Positions 32,127 to 52,745 of a stretch of 64,000 nt of DNA are shown one piece after another (the first letter of the stretch is position 1; the number at the start of each line of letters is the position of its first letter). The stretch is from Bacillota bacterium. GTDB lineage: Bacteria > Bacillota > Clostridia > Acetivibrionales > DTU013. The translations under genes and the position numbers were made by a program. The stretch lies in assembly GCA_023409735.1 (NCBI GenBank), contig JAEYRB010000006.1:10027-74026 (forward strand), written 5' to 3'. The notes beneath the pieces are model-generated. The model saw only the letters and a program-made list of their open reading frames with translations, had not been told where the DNA came from and ran no database searches.

Positions 32127-33416
32127 ATGAAAACTACATTAAAAGAGTTAAGAACATTTTTTATTCTCTGGAGTACACAGTCTCTGTCGCAGCTTGGAAG
32201 CACAATGACGAATTTTGCACTGACGCTGTGGCTATATGAAAAGACGGGTTCTGCACTTCAAACGGCACTTCTATCGATATGCTCCTATGCACCTTATGTG
32301 TTGATGAGTATTTTTGCAGGAGCGCTTAGCGATCGATGGGATAAGAAAAAGGTAATGCTGATTTGTGATACTCTTGCGGCATGTTCTACTGTTACAGTTT
32401 TAATCTTGCTGAAAACAGGTTTACTCAGTCCCGTATATATGTATCTTCTAAATGCTTTGAACGGTCTGATGAACACTGTCCAGAGTCCGGCAAGCGATGT
32501 GGCAATGACATTGATCACGCCTAAGAGATTTTATCAGAAAACAAGTGGTATGAGGTCTTTTTCCCAGTCTCTTGTAACGATTTTACACCCCGTTTTTGCG
32601 ACGGCATTATTTTCGTTTGCCGGGCTGGAGGCTGTAATATATACGGATATTGCAACCTTTGCTGTGGCGTTTTTTACACTTTTTTTCTTTGTCCGGATAT
32701 CTTCTATTACAAAAGAAGCAGCAATACAGAAAGAACCTCTTTTAGAGTCAGTAAGTGTTGCTTTAAAATATCTGCAGAAAAATGGCCTGATTCTTGTTTT
32801 AATACTTTTCCTTGCAGGTGTGAATTTAGTTGCATCTGCATTTGATGCGGTGCTTCCGGCATTTGTGCTTCCGAGAGAGAATGGAGGGACAGTAGTGCTT
32901 GGTATTGTCACCTCTTGCGCGGGAATTGCGACACTTATAGGCAGCTTGATAGTAACAGTTCTGCCTGCTCCCAGGAACCGCATTCGTGTAATATGCCTTA
33001 CAATGCTGCTTTCGCTTAGTATAGAAAATTTCCTGCTCTCGTTTAGCAGGCAGCCGCTTCTGTGGTGTCTTGCACAGATCATAGGATGGATGCCGGTACC
33101 TGTGATGAGTGCGAATCTGGATGTTATACTTCGCTCGACGATTCCCGCGGATATGCAGGGACGTGTATATTCCTGCAGAAACACACTGCAATTCTTTACC
33201 ATTCCAATAGGGTTCTTTTTAGGAGGACTAATGGTTGATCGTGTATGTGAGCCTTTTATGGCATCGCCGGCTTCTCCTGGACTTTTAACACAGCTTTTTG
33301 GTGTCGGAAAAGGCTCAGGTGCCGCAATGATGATGTTTATTCTTGGCGTTGCAGGCACAGCTATCTGTTTGATCTTTGGACGAATTTTGCAAAAGTATAA
33401 ATATGAAGAGGTGTGA
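32127..33416 (+). CDS. MFS transporter, DHA3/macrolide-efflux-like 12-TMS family
   Basis: 429 aa polytopic protein with an N-terminal FFILWSTQSLSQLGSTMTNFALTLWLYEKTGSA pattern, typical of this MFS subfamily. Confidence 0.8.
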   Translation: MKTTLKELRTFFILWSTQSLSQLGSTMTNFALTLWLYEKTGSALQTALLSICSYAPYVLMSIFAGALSDRWDKKKVMLICDTLAACSTVTVLILLKTGLLSPVYMYLLNALNGLMNTVQSPASDVAMTLITPKRFYQKTSGMRSFSQSLVTILHPVFATALFSFAGLEAVIYTDIATFAVAFFTLFFFVRISSITKEAAIQKEPLLESVSVALKYLQKNGLILVLILFLAGVNLVASAFDAVLPAFVLPRENGGTVVLGIVTSCAGIATLIGSLIVTVLPAPRNRIRVICLTMLLSLSIENFLLSFSRQPLLWCLAQIIGWMPVPVMSANLDVILRSTIPADMQGRVYSCRNTLQFFTIPIGFFLGGLMVDRVCEPFMASPASPGLLTQLFGVGKGSGAAMMMFILGVAGTAICLIFGRILQKYKYEEV

Positions 33417-33458
33417 TTCTTCCCTGAGATTTTTTTTGCTGGCCAACAAGCTTCGTGA

Positions 33459-34187
33459 TTATCCTAAAAGATTAGTCATTGATTTATAAATAAGGAAAAT
33501 GCCTATACTCACAACAACTAATGGAGTAAGTATACTTGAATACTTACTCATTTTTTCTTTTATTATGCTATATAATTTATCTACTTTATTTTGAAATTTA
33601 ACATATAAAACATATAATATAATTAATGGTGAAGAATAAATGAGGTTATATAATAGCATTATTAAAACTACAGTTAAAACTGGCAGTTCATAGTTGAGTA
33701 TAATTGATATAAAAGCGAAGTATGGCAATGCTGTGGGAATCTCACAAATTGTTGCTACAGAACCTAAAAAGAATAGTGATACTGGATTGAGGCTTTTGAA
33801 CTTTAATAATGTATTACTCTCTACCAAGTGCTCTGCAAAATCTCCTTTTAAGCTAGAGGTTTTATTTTCAGGAGACTTGTCTTTTTTTTTCATAATTGAA
33901 TAACTTACAGCAACTAAAACTAATATTCCTAAAATTAGTCCAGCTGTATAGACTAATTGAGAATACCTATCCAGGATCATATTCATATAGTTTTTGACAA
34001 CTGCTGCCAGACCATAATACACTAACATACCACCAATAAAATTCACTGTTGCTGTTGCAACAATAAAATACCAGATATGATGCCTTTTCTTGACAAGTCC
34101 TTGAAGTACAAATTGTTGTGTAATTCCTACAGGATTTAGACTATCTATAGCACTTGTAGTAATCGTTGCAATTAATAATGATAACAT
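33459..34187 (-). CDS. uncharacterized polytopic membrane protein (242 aa), downstream of the ykkC riboswitch
   Basis: About 6 hydrophobic segments split by a charged central loop (KKKDKSPENKTSSLKGDFAEH). ATG at 34187. Confidence 0.6.
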   Translation of the reverse strand: MLSLLIATITTSAIDSLNPVGITQQFVLQGLVKKRHHIWYFIVATATVNFIGGMLVYYGLAAVVKNYMNMILDRYSQLVYTAGLILGILVLVAVSYSIMKKKDKSPENKTSSLKGDFAEHLVESNTLLKFKSLNPVSLFFLGSVATICEIPTALPYFAFISIILNYELPVLTVVLIMLLYNLIYSSPLIILYVLYVKFQNKVDKLYSIIKEKMSKYSSILTPLVVVSIGIFLIYKSMTNLLG

Positions 34188-34217
34188 CCTATCGCAATCC
34201 TTTCATATGGATTTTAT

Positions 34218-34344
34218 AAAGGTCTCGGGGGCATCGAGCCCTCTTGCCTCTTTTGTAGCACCTCGGTCAATGCCATTAATAAAAGCCTCGGGGGCAACTG
34301 TCCCTCTCGCCTTTTTGCTTTAGCCCTTCGGGCAACGCACTAAT
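34218..34344. repeat. two tandem imperfect GC-rich modules of about 64 nt in the riboswitch-to-gene spacer
   Basis: 34218-34280 and 34281-34344 share CTCGGGGGCA, CCCTCT.GCCT.TTT, TCGG and terminal TAAT blocks in the same order. Confidence 0.6.
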
Positions 34345-34468
34345 AAAAAAAGCCTACAGAGATATCAAAATATCTCCTAGGCTTTTGTCCCTCCGTGAGC
34401 ACAGTAGAAACTGTGCGTTTTCTCTCGGACCAGACTAATCTGTACTCAGACTACGGAACCCTAGAAAA
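34345..34468 (-). ncRNA. ykkC-yxkD (guanidine-I-like) riboswitch with terminator expression platform
   Basis: The minus strand reads CTAGGGTTCCG...CTGGTCCGAGAGAAAAC-(hairpin GCACAG/CTGTGC)-CACGGAGGGACAAAAGCCTAGGAGAT. This matches the conserved ykkC blocks. A terminator hairpin overlaps the aptamer 3-prime end, followed by a U-run. Confidence 0.75.
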
Positions 34469-34661
34469 CTAAATACTACTAAAATTTAAATGTATACATA
34501 AGATATCATAATAATTTGTTTAAATCAATGGTTATAATCTGATAGAGTATGATATTCTTCTTCGGGTAATGATAACTCTAATTGATATTATTGGTAAAAA
34601 ACATTATAATAAAGTTACAACGGAATGTTATGTATACAAAGTAAACTATAGGAGGGCACAT

Positions 34662-36293
34662 ATGAAATACATCCAGAATCCGATACTACCCGGTTTTAAC
34701 CCTGATCCGGCAATAATCCGCAAAGATGATGATTATTATATTGCCACATCGACATTTGAATGGTTTCCTGGCATACCCATTTATCATTCCCGCGACCTAA
34801 TAAACTGGGAGTTGTCATCTTATGCGCTGAAAACTAAGGAATATCTCGACCTTACAGGCGAAGAGGCCTCAAAGGGAGCATGGGCGCCATGCCTTAGCTA
34901 TTGCGAGGAGGATAAGCGTTTTTATCTTATTTATTCAAATGTACACGGCAGTAATCCATGGTTTTTTGATGTGGATAATTATATGATATGGACAGATGAT
35001 ATAAACGGTGATTGGAGTAAGCCTGTATATCTCAATTCAAGCGGCTTTGACCCATCGCTATTTCACGATAATGATGGAAGAAAGTGGCTGGTTAATAAAG
35101 ATCGTGACTTCCGTCCGGGAAAGATGGACAGCCGTGCCATAATTGTTCAGGAATTTGATATGAAGAAATGCCAGCTCATAGGAGAACCTGTCGAAATTAG
35201 CCGTGGAGCCACAAAAAGAGGCTTTGTAGAGGGTGCACATATATATAAGCATAACAAATTTTATTACCTTGTAGCAGCTGAAGGTGGGACGGGTTATGGA
35301 CACTGTGTGACTGTCATGCGTTCAACCTCCATTACAGGACCATATGAGCCGGATCCTCTAAATCCTGTACTGACAAGTGCGGCATGGAACTTTTCTGCCA
35401 GTGAGGCCTCTCCATATATGATGCCGGAGCTTTGCAATCCTCTGGCCGGTGTTCAAAAGGCAGGTCACGGCTCTCTTGTTGAAACACAGGATGGTCAGCT
35501 TTATATGGCGCATCTTTGTGCAAGGCCAATACTTCCTCAGCGCAGATGCTATCTTGGGCGTGAGACCGCAATACAGAAGTTAATGTGGACCAATGATGGA
35601 TGGCTTAGAATGGCTGACGGCAGCAACATAGCAAAAGCTCAGGTACTGGCTCCCGGACTTCCCGAGCACCCTTTTCCCGGTGAGGAGCCAAAATGTGATT
35701 TTGACAACGGATGCATGAGTCAGGATTTATGCTCTCCCCATAATCCGATAACTGGGGAATGGGCTGACCTGACATCCAGAAGTGGATATCTCCGCCTGAG
35801 AGGTCAGGAATCACTTACCAGCCGCTATAATGTAAGCCTTGTTGCAAGGCGTGTTTCATCCTTCAGGGCTATGGCTGAAACAAAGCTGGACTTCACTCCT
35901 GAGCGCTACCACCATATGGCCGGGCTCTCGGTATATTATAACAATAAAAATCATTATGCAGTATATAAGACCTACGATGAAGTATTAGGTGAATGTATCT
36001 GTGCATATGTATATTCGCAGGAAAGAGTGACAGAGCTATGCAAACCTATTAAGCTGTCAGGCAATTCAGATGTATGGTTCCGTGCCGATATCGACGGACC
36101 TTCTCTCGGGTTAAGCTTCAGTGAAGACGGGGAAACATTCACTCCCATAAGTATGGAGCTTGATATGACCATGCTTGCCGACGAATATGCACATCAGATG
36201 TTTACCGGATCCTTTGTTGGAATATTTGCAGCAGACCTTCATACAAAGAGTAAATGGGCTGACTTTGACTATTTTACATACAAAGACCTATAG
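34662..36293 (+). CDS. glycoside hydrolase family 43 beta-xylosidase/alpha-L-arabinofuranosidase
   Basis: NPILPGFNPDPAIIRKDDDYYIATSTFEWFPGIPIYHSRDLINWE is the classic GH43 XynB-type N-terminus. There is a C-terminal beta-sandwich region. ATG at 34662 after AGGAGGG. Confidence 0.85.
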   Translation: MKYIQNPILPGFNPDPAIIRKDDDYYIATSTFEWFPGIPIYHSRDLINWELSSYALKTKEYLDLTGEEASKGAWAPCLSYCEEDKRFYLIYSNVHGSNPWFFDVDNYMIWTDDINGDWSKPVYLNSSGFDPSLFHDNDGRKWLVNKDRDFRPGKMDSRAIIVQEFDMKKCQLIGEPVEISRGATKRGFVEGAHIYKHNKFYYLVAAEGGTGYGHCVTVMRSTSITGPYEPDPLNPVLTSAAWNFSASEASPYMMPELCNPLAGVQKAGHGSLVETQDGQLYMAHLCARPILPQRRCYLGRETAIQKLMWTNDGWLRMADGSNIAKAQVLAPGLPEHPFPGEEPKCDFDNGCMSQDLCSPHNPITGEWADLTSRSGYLRLRGQESLTSRYNVSLVARRVSSFRAMAETKLDFTPERYHHMAGLSVYYNNKNHYAVYKTYDEVLGECICAYVYSQERVTELCKPIKLSGNSDVWFRADIDGPSLGLSFSEDGETFTPISMELDMTMLADEYAHQMFTGSFVGIFAADLHTKSKWADFDYFTYKDL

Positions 36294-49572: not shown

Positions 49573-51816
49573 ATGGGAGTAGCAAGAAAAAAGAGTTATG
49601 GATTAATAATGGCGGTGTATCTGCTCGGTATTTTCATGGGAGCGATCGATACTGGCATAGTATCTCCTGTAAGAACTATTATACAAAGCAGTCTTGGAGT
49701 TGATGGAAATACCGGTATCTGGATGATTACAATTTATACGCTTGCATATGCGGCAAGCATACCTGTTATGGGTAAGCTTGCTGATAAATATGGGCGTAAG
49801 GTCATTTATCTCATTAGTATATTACTTTTTGGTGCAGGCTCGCTGTTCTGCGGATTATCACAGATGTTTGGCAGCTTTTCAGTAATGCTGACAGCCCGTG
49901 TTATACAGGCTATTGGCGGTGGCGGAATCATTCCTGTTGCTACTGCCGAATTCGGAACAACCTTCCCGAAGGAAAAGCGGGGTATGGCACTTGGCCTTGT
50001 AGGAGGCGTATATGGTATTGCAAATATATTCGGTTCTTCTGCGGGAAGCCTGATACTCGACATATTTGGTTCGGATAATTGGAAGTACATATTCTTTGTC
50101 AACCTGCCGATTTCGGTATTTATTATAATTGCAGGAATTGTTTGCCTACCTAATACCAAGACAGAGAATGTTAAGAAAATAGACATTCTTGGTATTATGT
50201 CCCTGACAATTATGGTGTTGTCCATACTTTATGGACTTAAGAATATTGATTTCTTCGATTTTGCAAATAGCATCTCAGGCACAGATGTATACCCGTTCCT
50301 GATTATTTTTGTTATTATAATGCCGCTGTTTATTCTGGCTGAAAAGAAGGCTGAGGACCCTGTTATGAATTTAGCCTTCTTTAAAAACCTTCGTATAAAT
50401 ATTACGCTCATAATATCCTTTATCACAGGAGTTGCGATGATGGGTATAATATTCGTACCACAATTCTGTGAAAACTGTATGAACATGGTATCCGGAAGCG
50501 GAGGCTATTTTGTTATTGCACTTGGCGTGTTTGCCGGCCTTGGAGCTCCCGTGTCAGGAAAGCTTATTGATAAATACGGAGTTAGGCTTGTCCTTGCCAT
50601 AGGTTTTATTTCTTCTATCGCTGGTGCGCTTTTCCTGAATTTTGTGACAATTCCGCACTCGAACTACATTACAGTTTTTGCAGGCCTGATTCTGATGGGC
50701 ATAGGTATTGGCTTTACTATGGGGACACCGCTTAATTATATGATGCTGTCTAATACAAAAGAGGAAGAGTCTAACTCTGCTCTGGCAACTGTTTCTCTTG
50801 TGCGTTCTATAGGCACAGCTATTGCGCCTGCAATAATGATCGGCTTTATATCTCATGCAGGCATGAATGTCGGAACACAGGTAATGAATATTATGCCTGA
50901 AGATGTTAATATGCCGGAAATCAAATATGTTGATGAGCTTAGCGAGGAGATCTCTGTTATACAGGAAAACAAAGCTATTATGGCTATGATGGGTGATGTA
51001 GACCTGAGTAAAATGGATATCAAAAAAATGCTTGATATGAAAATTGATATGAGTAATACATCAGGAGATTTTACAATGCCTCAAGAGCTAACTACACTTA
51101 TGCAGAGCTCTGATGTTACCACCATTACCGATAATGCAAAGACTATGGCATCATACATGTTTGATAATATTCTTCCTAAGGCTGTTGGTGGAATACAAGA
51201 GGGAATAAGCTCACTTGAAAAGGTTTCAGCTTCAATGAGCAGTATGATGGGCTCAATGAAGGGCGGACAGGGAGCTGGTATGCCAAGTATGGATGCTGGC
51301 GCTATGGCAGACGGAAAAGGCGCAATGCCTGAAGGTATGCCAGGTATAGATGCTGGCGCTATGGCAGATGGGAAAGCCGCAATGCCTGAAGGTATGCCAG
51401 GTATGGATGCTGGCGCTATGGCTGGCGACAAAGGCGTAATGCCTGAAGGTATGCCGGGTAAGGATGCTGGCGCTATGGCAGACGGAAAAGCCGCAATGCC
51501 CGAGGGTATGCCGGGTATAGACATGAGCAAGATGGGCAATATGCCAGACATAAATACCATGCTTGAGCAGATGAAGTCTATACGCGACGAAATGCCTAGT
51601 GCTTTTGAAAAGGCAAAGGCCAATTACCTCTCACAGATCGACGGACTTGACGCTGATATAAGAGCGACATTTAAAGACACTCTTAATGTCGGCTTCCGTC
51701 AGGTTTACACTACAGTTATTGTGGCATCCCTTATAGCCTTGCTGCTGCTTGCTTTCTACAGAGAAAAGGAAAGAAAGGCAAAAGCTAATATTAACAGCAC
51801 AGCAGCAGGTAAGTAA
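49573..51816 (+). CDS. MFS drug/H+ antiporter-like transporter with a large hydrophilic insertion before the last TM segment
   Basis: MFS motifs (GKLADKYGRK, many TM segments). A non-membrane segment of about 260 aa (roughly 50880-51690) includes tandem repeats. 747 aa. Confidence 0.8.
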   Translation: MGVARKKSYGLIMAVYLLGIFMGAIDTGIVSPVRTIIQSSLGVDGNTGIWMITIYTLAYAASIPVMGKLADKYGRKVIYLISILLFGAGSLFCGLSQMFGSFSVMLTARVIQAIGGGGIIPVATAEFGTTFPKEKRGMALGLVGGVYGIANIFGSSAGSLILDIFGSDNWKYIFFVNLPISVFIIIAGIVCLPNTKTENVKKIDILGIMSLTIMVLSILYGLKNIDFFDFANSISGTDVYPFLIIFVIIMPLFILAEKKAEDPVMNLAFFKNLRINITLIISFITGVAMMGIIFVPQFCENCMNMVSGSGGYFVIALGVFAGLGAPVSGKLIDKYGVRLVLAIGFISSIAGALFLNFVTIPHSNYITVFAGLILMGIGIGFTMGTPLNYMMLSNTKEEESNSALATVSLVRSIGTAIAPAIMIGFISHAGMNVGTQVMNIMPEDVNMPEIKYVDELSEEISVIQENKAIMAMMGDVDLSKMDIKKMLDMKIDMSNTSGDFTMPQELTTLMQSSDVTTITDNAKTMASYMFDNILPKAVGGIQEGISSLEKVSASMSSMMGSMKGGQGAGMPSMDAGAMADGKGAMPEGMPGIDAGAMADGKAAMPEGMPGMDAGAMAGDKGVMPEGMPGKDAGAMADGKAAMPEGMPGIDMSKMGNMPDINTMLEQMKSIRDEMPSAFEKAKANYLSQIDGLDADIRATFKDTLNVGFRQVYTTVIVASLIALLLLAFYREKERKAKANINSTAAGK
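51277..51530 (+). repeat. in-frame 57-bp tandem repeat, 4 full copies plus a partial one, encoding GMPGIDAGAMADGKAAMPE
   Basis: GGTATGCC unit starts at 51277, 51334, 51391, 51448 and 51505. Confidence 0.9.
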
Positions 51817-52067
51817 AGCTGAGAATTTAATTAATAACGAAGCCAGCAGGTAAGTAACCTAAAAATAATACTAATTACATGGCAGCAGATAAAATATAAC
51901 ATAATACTATTTCATATCTATACTATAATGCTGCTATAAGCGCGCATTACAAAAACCTCTTTCAGCTTAAAGCCGGAAGGGGTTTTTTATGGGTGCGCCC
52001 TAAGGGTTATAGCAAAAAGTTGAGGAGGGCTCTATGCCCCGAAACTTTTATTAATACATATAGTAAG

Positions 52068-52745
52068 TTAATCAATATACTTTTCAATTTTCATGTTCTT
52101 CATTAGGTCTGATATTTTATCTTCATAGTACTTATTGAATTTGTCCCGGAAATCGTTGCCTGGAGCATAATCAATATTTTCTGACATAAAGTTCTTTTTT
52201 ATTTTATCCTTATATTTTCCTCTGATCATAACCTTCTTAACAGCGGGCTTTAGCCTTTCCCAATATTGATCGACTGTTATATTAAGGCTTTCAGATAATG
52301 CATCTATGGTATTCTTAATTTCCTCGTCACTTGAATAGCTGTTCTTCTGCTCCTGCAATGCCTTTTCCAAGTCCTCGTCACTTACTGTGATGCCTTCCTT
52401 TAAAGCATTGATATATACAGCCTCATTCCTTATGATTTTATCCAGGAGCTCTGAATCCGAGGGAACCTTATCGGCAGCCTTCCATAGAGCTTTATAGCTA
52501 TCAAACGACTCTTTTGTTATTATTGTATCTTCTATTTTTGCAACGGCTTTGTTATCGTCATCGTTATTTCCCTCAGCTTCAGCTGTTTTCTCGGTAAATG
52601 AATTAAGCTCGGGCGTCAGACCGAAAAGTACATCTTCTGTATTTGCCCTGTTAGAAGCTTTAGAATTAATAAGGGAAAGAACCAGTACTCCTGTGACTAA
52701 CAATATCGCGGCTATACAGGCTATTATCAGTTTGATTTTTTTCAT
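52068..52745 (-). CDS. membrane-anchored secreted protein, SurA-N/PpiC-chaperone-like (tentative)
   Basis: N-terminal TM/signal anchor MKKIKLIIACIAAILLVTGVLVL followed by a helical, charged domain of about 190 aa. Confidence 0.45.
   Translation of the reverse strand: MKKIKLIIACIAAILLVTGVLVLSLINSKASNRANTEDVLFGLTPELNSFTEKTAEAEGNNDDDNKAVAKIEDTIITKESFDSYKALWKAADKVPSDSELLDKIIRNEAVYINALKEGITVSDEDLEKALQEQKNSYSSDEEIKNTIDALSESLNITVDQYWERLKPAVKKVMIRGKYKDKIKKNFMSENIDYAPGNDFRDKFNKYYEDKISDLMKNMKIEKYID

Follow-up and report, generated by a model that had tools for sequence, protein, structure and literature searches.

A guanidine-I riboswitch precedes a lone GAP/SfLAP-family membrane protein gene in Clostridia, a candidate guanidinium exporter

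The locus lies on the minus strand of the window (the whole 64-kb stretch of DNA that was analysed) and consists of a riboswitch aptamer, an overlapping intrinsic terminator, two tandem repeat units and a single gene for a membrane protein, with a third copy of the repeat at a distant site on the plus strand:

34372..34475, minus strand: guanidine-I (ykkC subtype 1) aptamer with P1/P1a/P1b, P2 and P3 with its A-rich loop (RF00442)
34345..34385, minus strand: intrinsic terminator, hairpin 34385-34349 and U-tract 34351 to 34345
34275..34340, minus strand: repeat unit R1, 66 nt, of direct-repeat family D1, between the terminator and the ribosome binding site (RBS)
34211..34274, minus strand: repeat unit R2, 64 nt, in tandem with R1
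34185..34204, minus strand: RBS GAAAGGA (34204-34198) and ATG start codon (34187-34185), read from the sequence and aligning with orthologous leaders
33459..34187, minus strand: gene for a 242-aa polytopic membrane protein, PF11139 (SfLAP/GAP, LysE superfamily) by Pfam, candidate guanidinium exporter
about 51992-52054, plus strand: third repeat copy, after a terminator-like hairpin between the convergent ORFs 49573-51816 (plus) and 52068-52745 (minus)

Scanning all 64 kb of the window with cmscan against Rfam 15 gave a sole match at gathering level, RF00442 (Guanidine-I), at 34372-34475 on the minus strand (88.8 bits, E = 1.3e-14; gathering score 63 bits), covering model positions 1-107 of 107. 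The score upholds the ykkC/guanidine-I identity proposed in an earlier reading made without database searches (hereafter the sequence-only reading). The three ykkC blocks quoted there are all present, in the minus-strand order UUUUCUAGGGUUCCG...CUGGUCCGAGAGAAAAC...CACGGAGGGACAAAAGCCUAGGAGAU, and its coordinates of 34345-34468 were essentially right, the model match reaching 7 nt further 5′ to 34475. A permissive Rfam rescan of positions 33000-35000 (E <= 10) found no other riboswitch family, including ppGpp, PRPP and guanidine-II/III/IV. Covariation in P1/P1a/P1b, P2 and P3 was analysed across 21 homologous leaders, using an alignment that was fitted to the RF00442 model and is biased towards its structure; here 97.6% of cells were paired, compared with 30-48% in slid controls, 17 of the 28 pairs had changed on both sides, and none of 500 shuffles reached the observed values. 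As a guanidine-I ON switch of the standard kind and a regular RF00442 member, the riboswitch brings no novelty for RNA biology, and we regard this part of our explanation as almost certain.

The ligand subtype had been left in doubt, because the last block contains TAGG where the sequence-only reading expected CGGG. Criteria were taken from two published studies (PMC5340920; PMC6031431), and positions in the window were given D. dadantii numbers by mapping through the Rfam alignment. In the D. dadantii aptamer the guanidinium stacks on G67, the G37/A38 bulge comes close to it, G84 is flipped out and paired with C64, and the C69-G83 pair is weak and poorly conserved (Battaglia et al., PMC5340920). 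Subtype 2 RNAs carry pyrimidines at the positions of A38 and G67 (PMC5340920). The same adenosine, A46 in S. acidophilus numbering, is the marker that parts guanidine aptamers from subtype 2, in which conserved terminal extensions form a P0 helix (Knappenberger et al., PMC6031431).

Within the window aptamer, GUCCGAGAG supplies G37 and A38, CACGG corresponds to C64, A65, C66, G67 and G68, and AGGAG corresponds to A83, G84, G85, A86 and G87. The ligand-pocket residues G37, G67, G68 and G85, the S-turn residues G84/C64 and the A-rich P3 loop (ACAAAAG) are all kept, and the subtype marker is A (GUCCGAG-A-G), as it is in all 21 related aptamers. Across these aptamers the pocket nucleotides were invariant, except for one G-to-A change in the loop-closing GCC of locus L028. 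The deviation of TAGG from CGGG is real and has two components: a C-to-U change that leaves a G·U pair closing the central P3 helix, and a change of G83 to A at a variable position. Position 83 was A in 11 and G in 10 of the 21 aptamers upstream of homologous genes, and position 69 was usually U where position 83 was A.

These observations bear on whether the aptamer could instead be a ykkC subtype 2 variant sensing ppGpp, PRPP or a nucleoside diphosphate. The one point in favour of such a variant is that the sequence-only reading expected CGGG in the last block, and the departures from it amount to a wobble pair plus a change at the variable position 83. The marker is A and position 67 is G, neither of which is the pyrimidine found in subtype 2. 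Conserved tails able to form P0 are not apparent, since the 21 leaders differ from one another in the six nucleotides 5′ of P1 and the aptamer leads at its 3′ end straight into the loop of the terminator. Nor does the gene context, which in subtype 2 comprises amino-acid and purine biosynthesis and nucleotide hydrolases, correspond to that of the window, where the sole downstream gene encodes a PF11139 membrane protein. A subtype 2 ligand is in our view extremely improbable. As far as can be read from the RNA itself, every published ligand-contact and subtype-marker position is of the guanidine type (marker A, G67, G68, G84, G85, A86 and G87), which dispels the earlier doubt; since TAGG is also explained, the subtype question is closed for guanidine, short of a binding experiment.

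In the minimum-energy fold of the leader, AAAGCCUAGGAGAUAU (34385-34370) pairs with AUAUCUCU-g-UAGGCUUU (34365-34349) to form a terminator hairpin that is followed by U7 to 34345, and the local terminator segment has a minimum folding energy of -26 kcal/mol. The 5′ arm of the hairpin is made up of the P3 A-loop and the 3′ strand of P3 (G84, G85, A86, G87), so that the aptamer and terminator folds exclude each other, as is standard in ON switches. The fold thus bears out the earlier description of a terminator that reuses the 3′ end of the aptamer and ends in a U-run. A terminator overlapping P3 was found in every one of the 20 leaders folded, that of the window and 19 others. According to the model, without guanidinium the 3′ strand of P3 would pair downstream to form a 16-bp intrinsic terminator, and transcription would stop at the U-tract (34351-34345). 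Guanidinium in the pocket (G37/A38, G67, the G68 phosphate and G85) would stabilize P3 and block the terminator, whereupon RNA polymerase would read through the repeat-bearing 5′ UTR into the 242-aa gene. The expected response in vivo would be guanidine-dependent read-through.

Upstream of the aptamer, a promoter scan returned two candidates for the riboswitch transcript, 34631-34603 and 34598-34569. A 574-aa ORF on the plus strand, judged by eye to encode a GH43-like glycosidase, has its listed start in the 34569-34665 region; its probable start is an internal Met (MKYIQNPILPGFNPDP) near 34662 with GGAGG before it. A start there would leave a divergent intergenic region of ~186 nt (34476-34661) for both promoters.

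The distance from aptamer to start codon is 184 nt in the window compared with 38-87 nt in orthologous leaders, because a 130-nt insertion of two tandem repeat units (R1 and R2) is present. An alignment of leaders placed the insertion cleanly between the U-tract and the conserved AAATC-ATATGAAAGGA RBS block, and it was absent from the orthologous leaders L001, L002, L003, L005 and L009. The repeat is 63-66 nt long with the unit GTGCG(TT)GCCCGAAGGGCTAAAGCAAAAAGGCGAGAGGGACAGTTGCCCCCGAGGCTTTTATTAAT and has a GC content of about 50%, compared with 40% for the window. The third copy at a distant site indicates that it is a small dispersed repeat, perhaps REP-like or MITE-like, and not part of the riboswitch. 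No Rfam family matched the repeat at E <= 10 and no match was found in plasmids. Further leads on the repeat were considered and set aside. As a structured RNA or second aptamer it offered a weak consensus fold (-8 kcal/mol) with one compensatory change at a single pair among three copies; ten exact matches of its core in viral contigs had nothing in common beyond that core and are therefore attributed to chance; and a likeness to the ykkC 3′ block (GAGGGACAAAAGCCUAGGAG compared with GAGGGACAGUUGCCCCCGAG) involves three mismatches in a short pattern and is not meaningful. At locus L025 (1345-1470) a different insertion of ~120 nt occupies the same place between terminator and RBS and holds inverted repeats (GGGGATATAGTTTGAATAAATTCAAACTATATCC and CCGGCGG...CGCCGCCG). 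This spot seems to tolerate inserted elements in both the window and L025.

The inserted repeats could alter the coupling between riboswitch and gene in this genome. An extreme form of this idea is that the insertion supplies its own promoter, terminator or processing site and that the aptamer is a relic uncoupled from the gene. The insertion is indeed missing from all orthologous leaders examined, and the Clostridium sartagoforme orthologue shows decay of the cassette, with three in-frame stops behind an intact aptamer. Against complete uncoupling, the aptamer, terminator, RBS and ORF of the window are all intact and the protein keeps every invariant residue of its family; furthermore, a search of the insertion for terminator-like sites on its sense strand found none, and the common fold of the repeat copies is weak. 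We consider uncoupling very unlikely and retain the reading in which the riboswitch controls the downstream gene.

The next ORF on the aptamer strand is 33459-34187, and because the ORF beyond it (32127-33416) lies on the opposite strand the unit is monocistronic. As the sequence-only reading had stated, the 242-aa polytopic membrane protein is the product of the only downstream gene. Its sole Pfam match above the curated cutoff was PF11139 (SfLAP, 'Sap, sulfolipid-1-addressing protein'; E = 3.6e-17, 63 bits vs a cutoff of 35), which spans residues 13-237 and profile positions 6-212 of 213, and none of the NCBIfam models matched. The suspicion that the downstream family is an unusual one was justified, since by Pfam and NCBIfam the protein is not a carboxylase, SMR/Gdx, ABC, MATE or PnuC protein. 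The GAP family (TC 2.A.116) belongs to the LysE superfamily and comprises proteins of ~233 aa whose six segments are arranged 3+3; the only members characterized are mycobacterial and are implicated in glycolipid export, and members of the LysE superfamily mostly export basic amino acids and cations (Tsu and Saier, PMC4608589). An exhaustive phmmer search of 1.84 billion representatives found 436 homologous proteins at E <= 1e-3 and 27 at E <= 1e-30, the latter being clusters at 50% identity. Relatives are labelled in public records as 'GAP family protein' or, misleadingly, as 'cytochrome c biogenesis protein CcdA'.

Hydropathy and an AlphaFold2 model (pLDDT 81, pTM 0.69) agreed on six helices in a 3+3 arrangement, so that the 242-aa protein has the size and topology of the GAP family (about 180-290 aa, six segments, 3+3). 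The modelled helices span residues 2-31 (broken at 17-18), 35-57, 60-113, 135-166 (broken), 170-197 and 199-241, and the central loop (108-130) is disordered in the model. Both hydropathy and the model placed a break in TM1 at D15-S-L-N-P19 and a break in TM4 at E149-I-P. The residues D15, N18, P19, E149 and P155-Y-F were conserved in essentially all of the 68 family sequences compared, D15 and E149 being invariant in 67 of them, and the window protein keeps every invariant family residue. An internal 3+3 sequence duplication was undetectable by hhalign (probability 3.5%). A sequence-profile search of the PDB (best E = 1.5) and a Foldseek search of the PDB with the pLDDT-81 model (best E = 2, TM 0.2) found no solved relative, so that membership of the LysE superfamily rests on the Pfam and TCDB classification.

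The transporter gene (region 33250-34250) has a GC content of 28-34%, compared with 42-49% in the flanking genes, and the closest relatives of the window protein occur in low-GC Clostridiaceae. Both observations are compatible with horizontal acquisition of a riboswitch-gene cassette.

Homologous loci were collected from genomes, by exact-protein look-ups and by a metagenome scan with a 21-sequence alignment. A same-strand RF00442 match above gathering immediately precedes the homologue in L001-L004, L005, L009 and L010, and likewise in 17 further loci that include the Oscillospiraceae metagenome-assembled genome (MAG) L106; at L019, where the aptamer is cut by the contig end, it was found with a custom model built from six of these aptamers. 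After duplicates had been collapsed, 21 distinct loci besides the window carry the pairing of riboswitch and homologue. The riboswitch-positive hosts, which include Clostridiaceae and Oscillospiraceae MAGs as well as Clostridium sartagoforme, are gut and fermenter Clostridia. Spacing between aptamer and gene was 38-87 nt, with the exception of L025 (173 nt). The window protein is 73% identical to the closest of the riboswitch-positive homologues and about 35% identical to the most distant, and the genes flanking these homologues (ABC exporters, phosphate transporters, CRISPR-cas genes, Tex and others) were unrelated between loci. The next gene past the homologue is usually on the opposite strand and most loci are monocistronic. 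The riboswitch-gene pairing persists through extensive sequence divergence and neighbourhood change.

In a neighbour-joining tree, all riboswitch-positive proteins fell into one clade of 22 positive and 11 negative members, and none of the 35 sequences in more distant clades had a riboswitch. Scans upstream of the riboswitch-negative members of the clade, including scans with filters off, found no guanidine-II, guanidine-III or other Rfam element. Since neither guanidine-II nor guanidine-III occurred in any locus scanned, the support comes from one riboswitch class only.

Several individual loci merit description. In Clostridium sartagoforme JCM 1413 (NZ_BAAACH010000002.1; L002:2831-3729) the three in-frame stops in the orthologous gene replace residues that are conserved elsewhere (Q24, G59 and a glycine near residue 228), behind a guanidine-I aptamer that still scores 85.5 bits; either the cassette is decaying or these are sequencing errors. 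Three same-clade homologues without a riboswitch adjoin two-component systems. At L015 and L107 the order is a UvrD-like helicase, the transporter and a histidine kinase gene in the opposite direction, with a response-regulator gene beside the kinase at L015 and the locus ending inside the kinase at L107; at L011 the homologue runs divergently from a gene pair for a response regulator and a kinase. These neighbours could provide alternative, protein-based regulation. A Clostridiales-1 RNA (RF01699, 114 bits; L039:3171-3333, minus strand) lies ~1 kb downstream of a distant riboswitch-less homologue, to which it is probably unrelated. Finally, a same-strand ORF for a GNAT-type acetyltransferase lies 180-350 nt downstream of the homologue at L001/L003:4083-4517, L004:1637-2080 and L002:3909-4427, the GNAT identity having been assigned by Pfam in L003 and L004. 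GNAT is among the domain classes associated with guanidine riboswitches (Lenkeit et al.).

The pairing with a guanidine riboswitch in ~20 other Clostridia makes the PF11139 protein a good candidate for a new guanidine exporter. A lone transporter gene behind a guanidine riboswitch is the documented pattern for detoxification (PMC12186494, PMC7736828). Together with the presence of importers in operons with degradative enzymes, and with a superfamily in which exporters of cationic substrates predominate, this pattern favours export, and we infer both the outward direction of transport and guanidinium as its substrate. On the other side, guanidine riboswitches are missing from about 12 proteins of the same clade, the characterized GAP members are tied to glycolipid and not ion transport, and the structure search found no solved relative to guide the mechanism.

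The protein might alternatively import guanidine or a guanidino compound as a nitrogen source, with the riboswitch inducing uptake once guanidine is present. Such arrangements exist, in that some guanidine-I riboswitches control importers (ABC systems) in guanidine-assimilating species, but there the controlled importers lie in operons with guanidine carboxylase or guanidinase genes (PMC12186494). The gene studied here is monocistronic, and such enzyme genes were missing both from the 29-40 kb part of the window and from the flanking regions at 20 related loci; moreover, most families of the LysE superfamily export their substrates (PMC4608589). Import is distinctly unlikely, and export remains the preferred direction.

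A different substrate has somewhat more to recommend it. The protein could export a related compound (arginine, canavanine, methylguanidine or agmatine), or it could act on envelope lipids in the manner of mycobacterial Gap/Sap, within a general response to guanidine stress. ArgO exports arginine. LysE/ArgO relatives export arginine and related amino acids; the downstream same-strand GNAT acetyltransferase genes at L001/L003/L004 also speak for another substrate, and the characterized GAP-family members, mycobacterial Gap/Sap, are lipid 'addressing' proteins (PMC4608589). However, larger guanidino compounds are rejected by guanidine-I aptamers (PMC5340920), and transporters controlled by guanidine riboswitches have been selective for guanidinium where tested (PMC12186494). 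With regard to lipids, neither the window gene nor its counterparts at the related loci have glycolipid, sulfolipid or other lipid biosynthesis genes beside them, and the window subfamily probably shares the fold family of the mycobacterial GAP members but not their function. Taken together we regard another substrate or a lipid role as unlikely.

Our best explanation is that a guanidine-I ON riboswitch controls a single gene whose GAP/SfLAP product most likely exports guanidinium, and guanidinium export considered by itself is likewise probable. In this scheme, the 242-aa protein produced after read-through would export guanidinium (Gdm+) from the cytoplasm, as a functional counterpart of Gdx (SMR) and of the MATE and PnuC-like proteins predicted to work behind guanidine-IV. 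The likely binding site for the cation or for protons would be D15 and E149, invariant residues that lie within the membrane where TM1 and TM4 break, a role that we put forward as a hypothesis.

Comparison with known systems places the locus closest in design to ykkCD/gdx (e.g. Bacillus subtilis), with which it shares the aptamer class (RF00442 subtype 1) and the terminator-based ON logic, in each case a riboswitch joined to a small stand-alone membrane transporter. The proteins differ: SMR subunits are ~105 aa with four helices and form dual-topology dimers, whereas the window protein is 242 aa with six helices (3+3) and belongs to PF11139. It falls outside the Gdx/SMR description (about 100-110 aa, four helices, PF00893) and has no Multi_Drug_Res match in Pfam, and it may work like Gdx without being a member of that family. 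Guanidine-IV (the mepA motif) is found upstream of MATE and PnuC-like transporters that were predicted to be new families of guanidine exporters (PMC7736828), which gives a precedent for nominating exporters by riboswitch association, as done here; the aptamer class and the transporter folds differ from those of the window. PF11139 is absent from the supplementary gene tables of that study (Lenkeit et al., PMC7736828).

Among proteins of the same superfamily (PMC4608589), LysE/ArgO/RhtB, MntP and CadD have about 200-240 aa in a 3+3 arrangement and export basic amino acids bearing guanidinium or ammonium groups, or metal cations. The window protein resembles LysE at the superfamily level only, its best Pfam family being SfLAP and not LysE. 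The mycobacterial Gap/Sap proteins, founding members of PF11139 (TC 2.A.116), share its Pfam family and predicted topology. In contrast to the window clade, which is from Clostridia, stand-alone and controlled by a guanidine riboswitch, they come from Actinobacteria, where they lie in glycopeptidolipid/sulfolipid loci, and have been implicated in the export of lipids.

The literature searched, outside which lay Nelson et al. 2017 and Reiss et al. 2017, did not connect PF11139, DUF2910, GAP or LysE with guanidine riboswitches, and the association of PF11139 with guanidine may already be listed in the gene tables of Nelson et al. 2017. The RNA is an ordinary riboswitch, and the new lead, a modest one, lies in its association with this gene.

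It was through associations between riboswitches and genes that Gdx, guanidine carboxylase and the MATE and PnuC candidates came to be linked to guanidine biology, and the same logic gives a testable substrate to a small uncharacterized clade of membrane proteins. On balance, we lean slightly towards the view that the GAP/SfLAP clade of Clostridia is an unrecognized class of guanidinium exporter, structurally unlike Gdx/SMR, MATE and PnuC-like transporters, that uses D15 and E149 for Gdm+/H+ exchange. If so, it would represent a fourth structural solution to guanidinium efflux and would extend the range of chemistry known for the LysE superfamily. Genes of gut and fermenter Clostridia would be better annotated, and a family so far known only from lipid export in mycobacteria would gain its first ion or small-molecule substrate.
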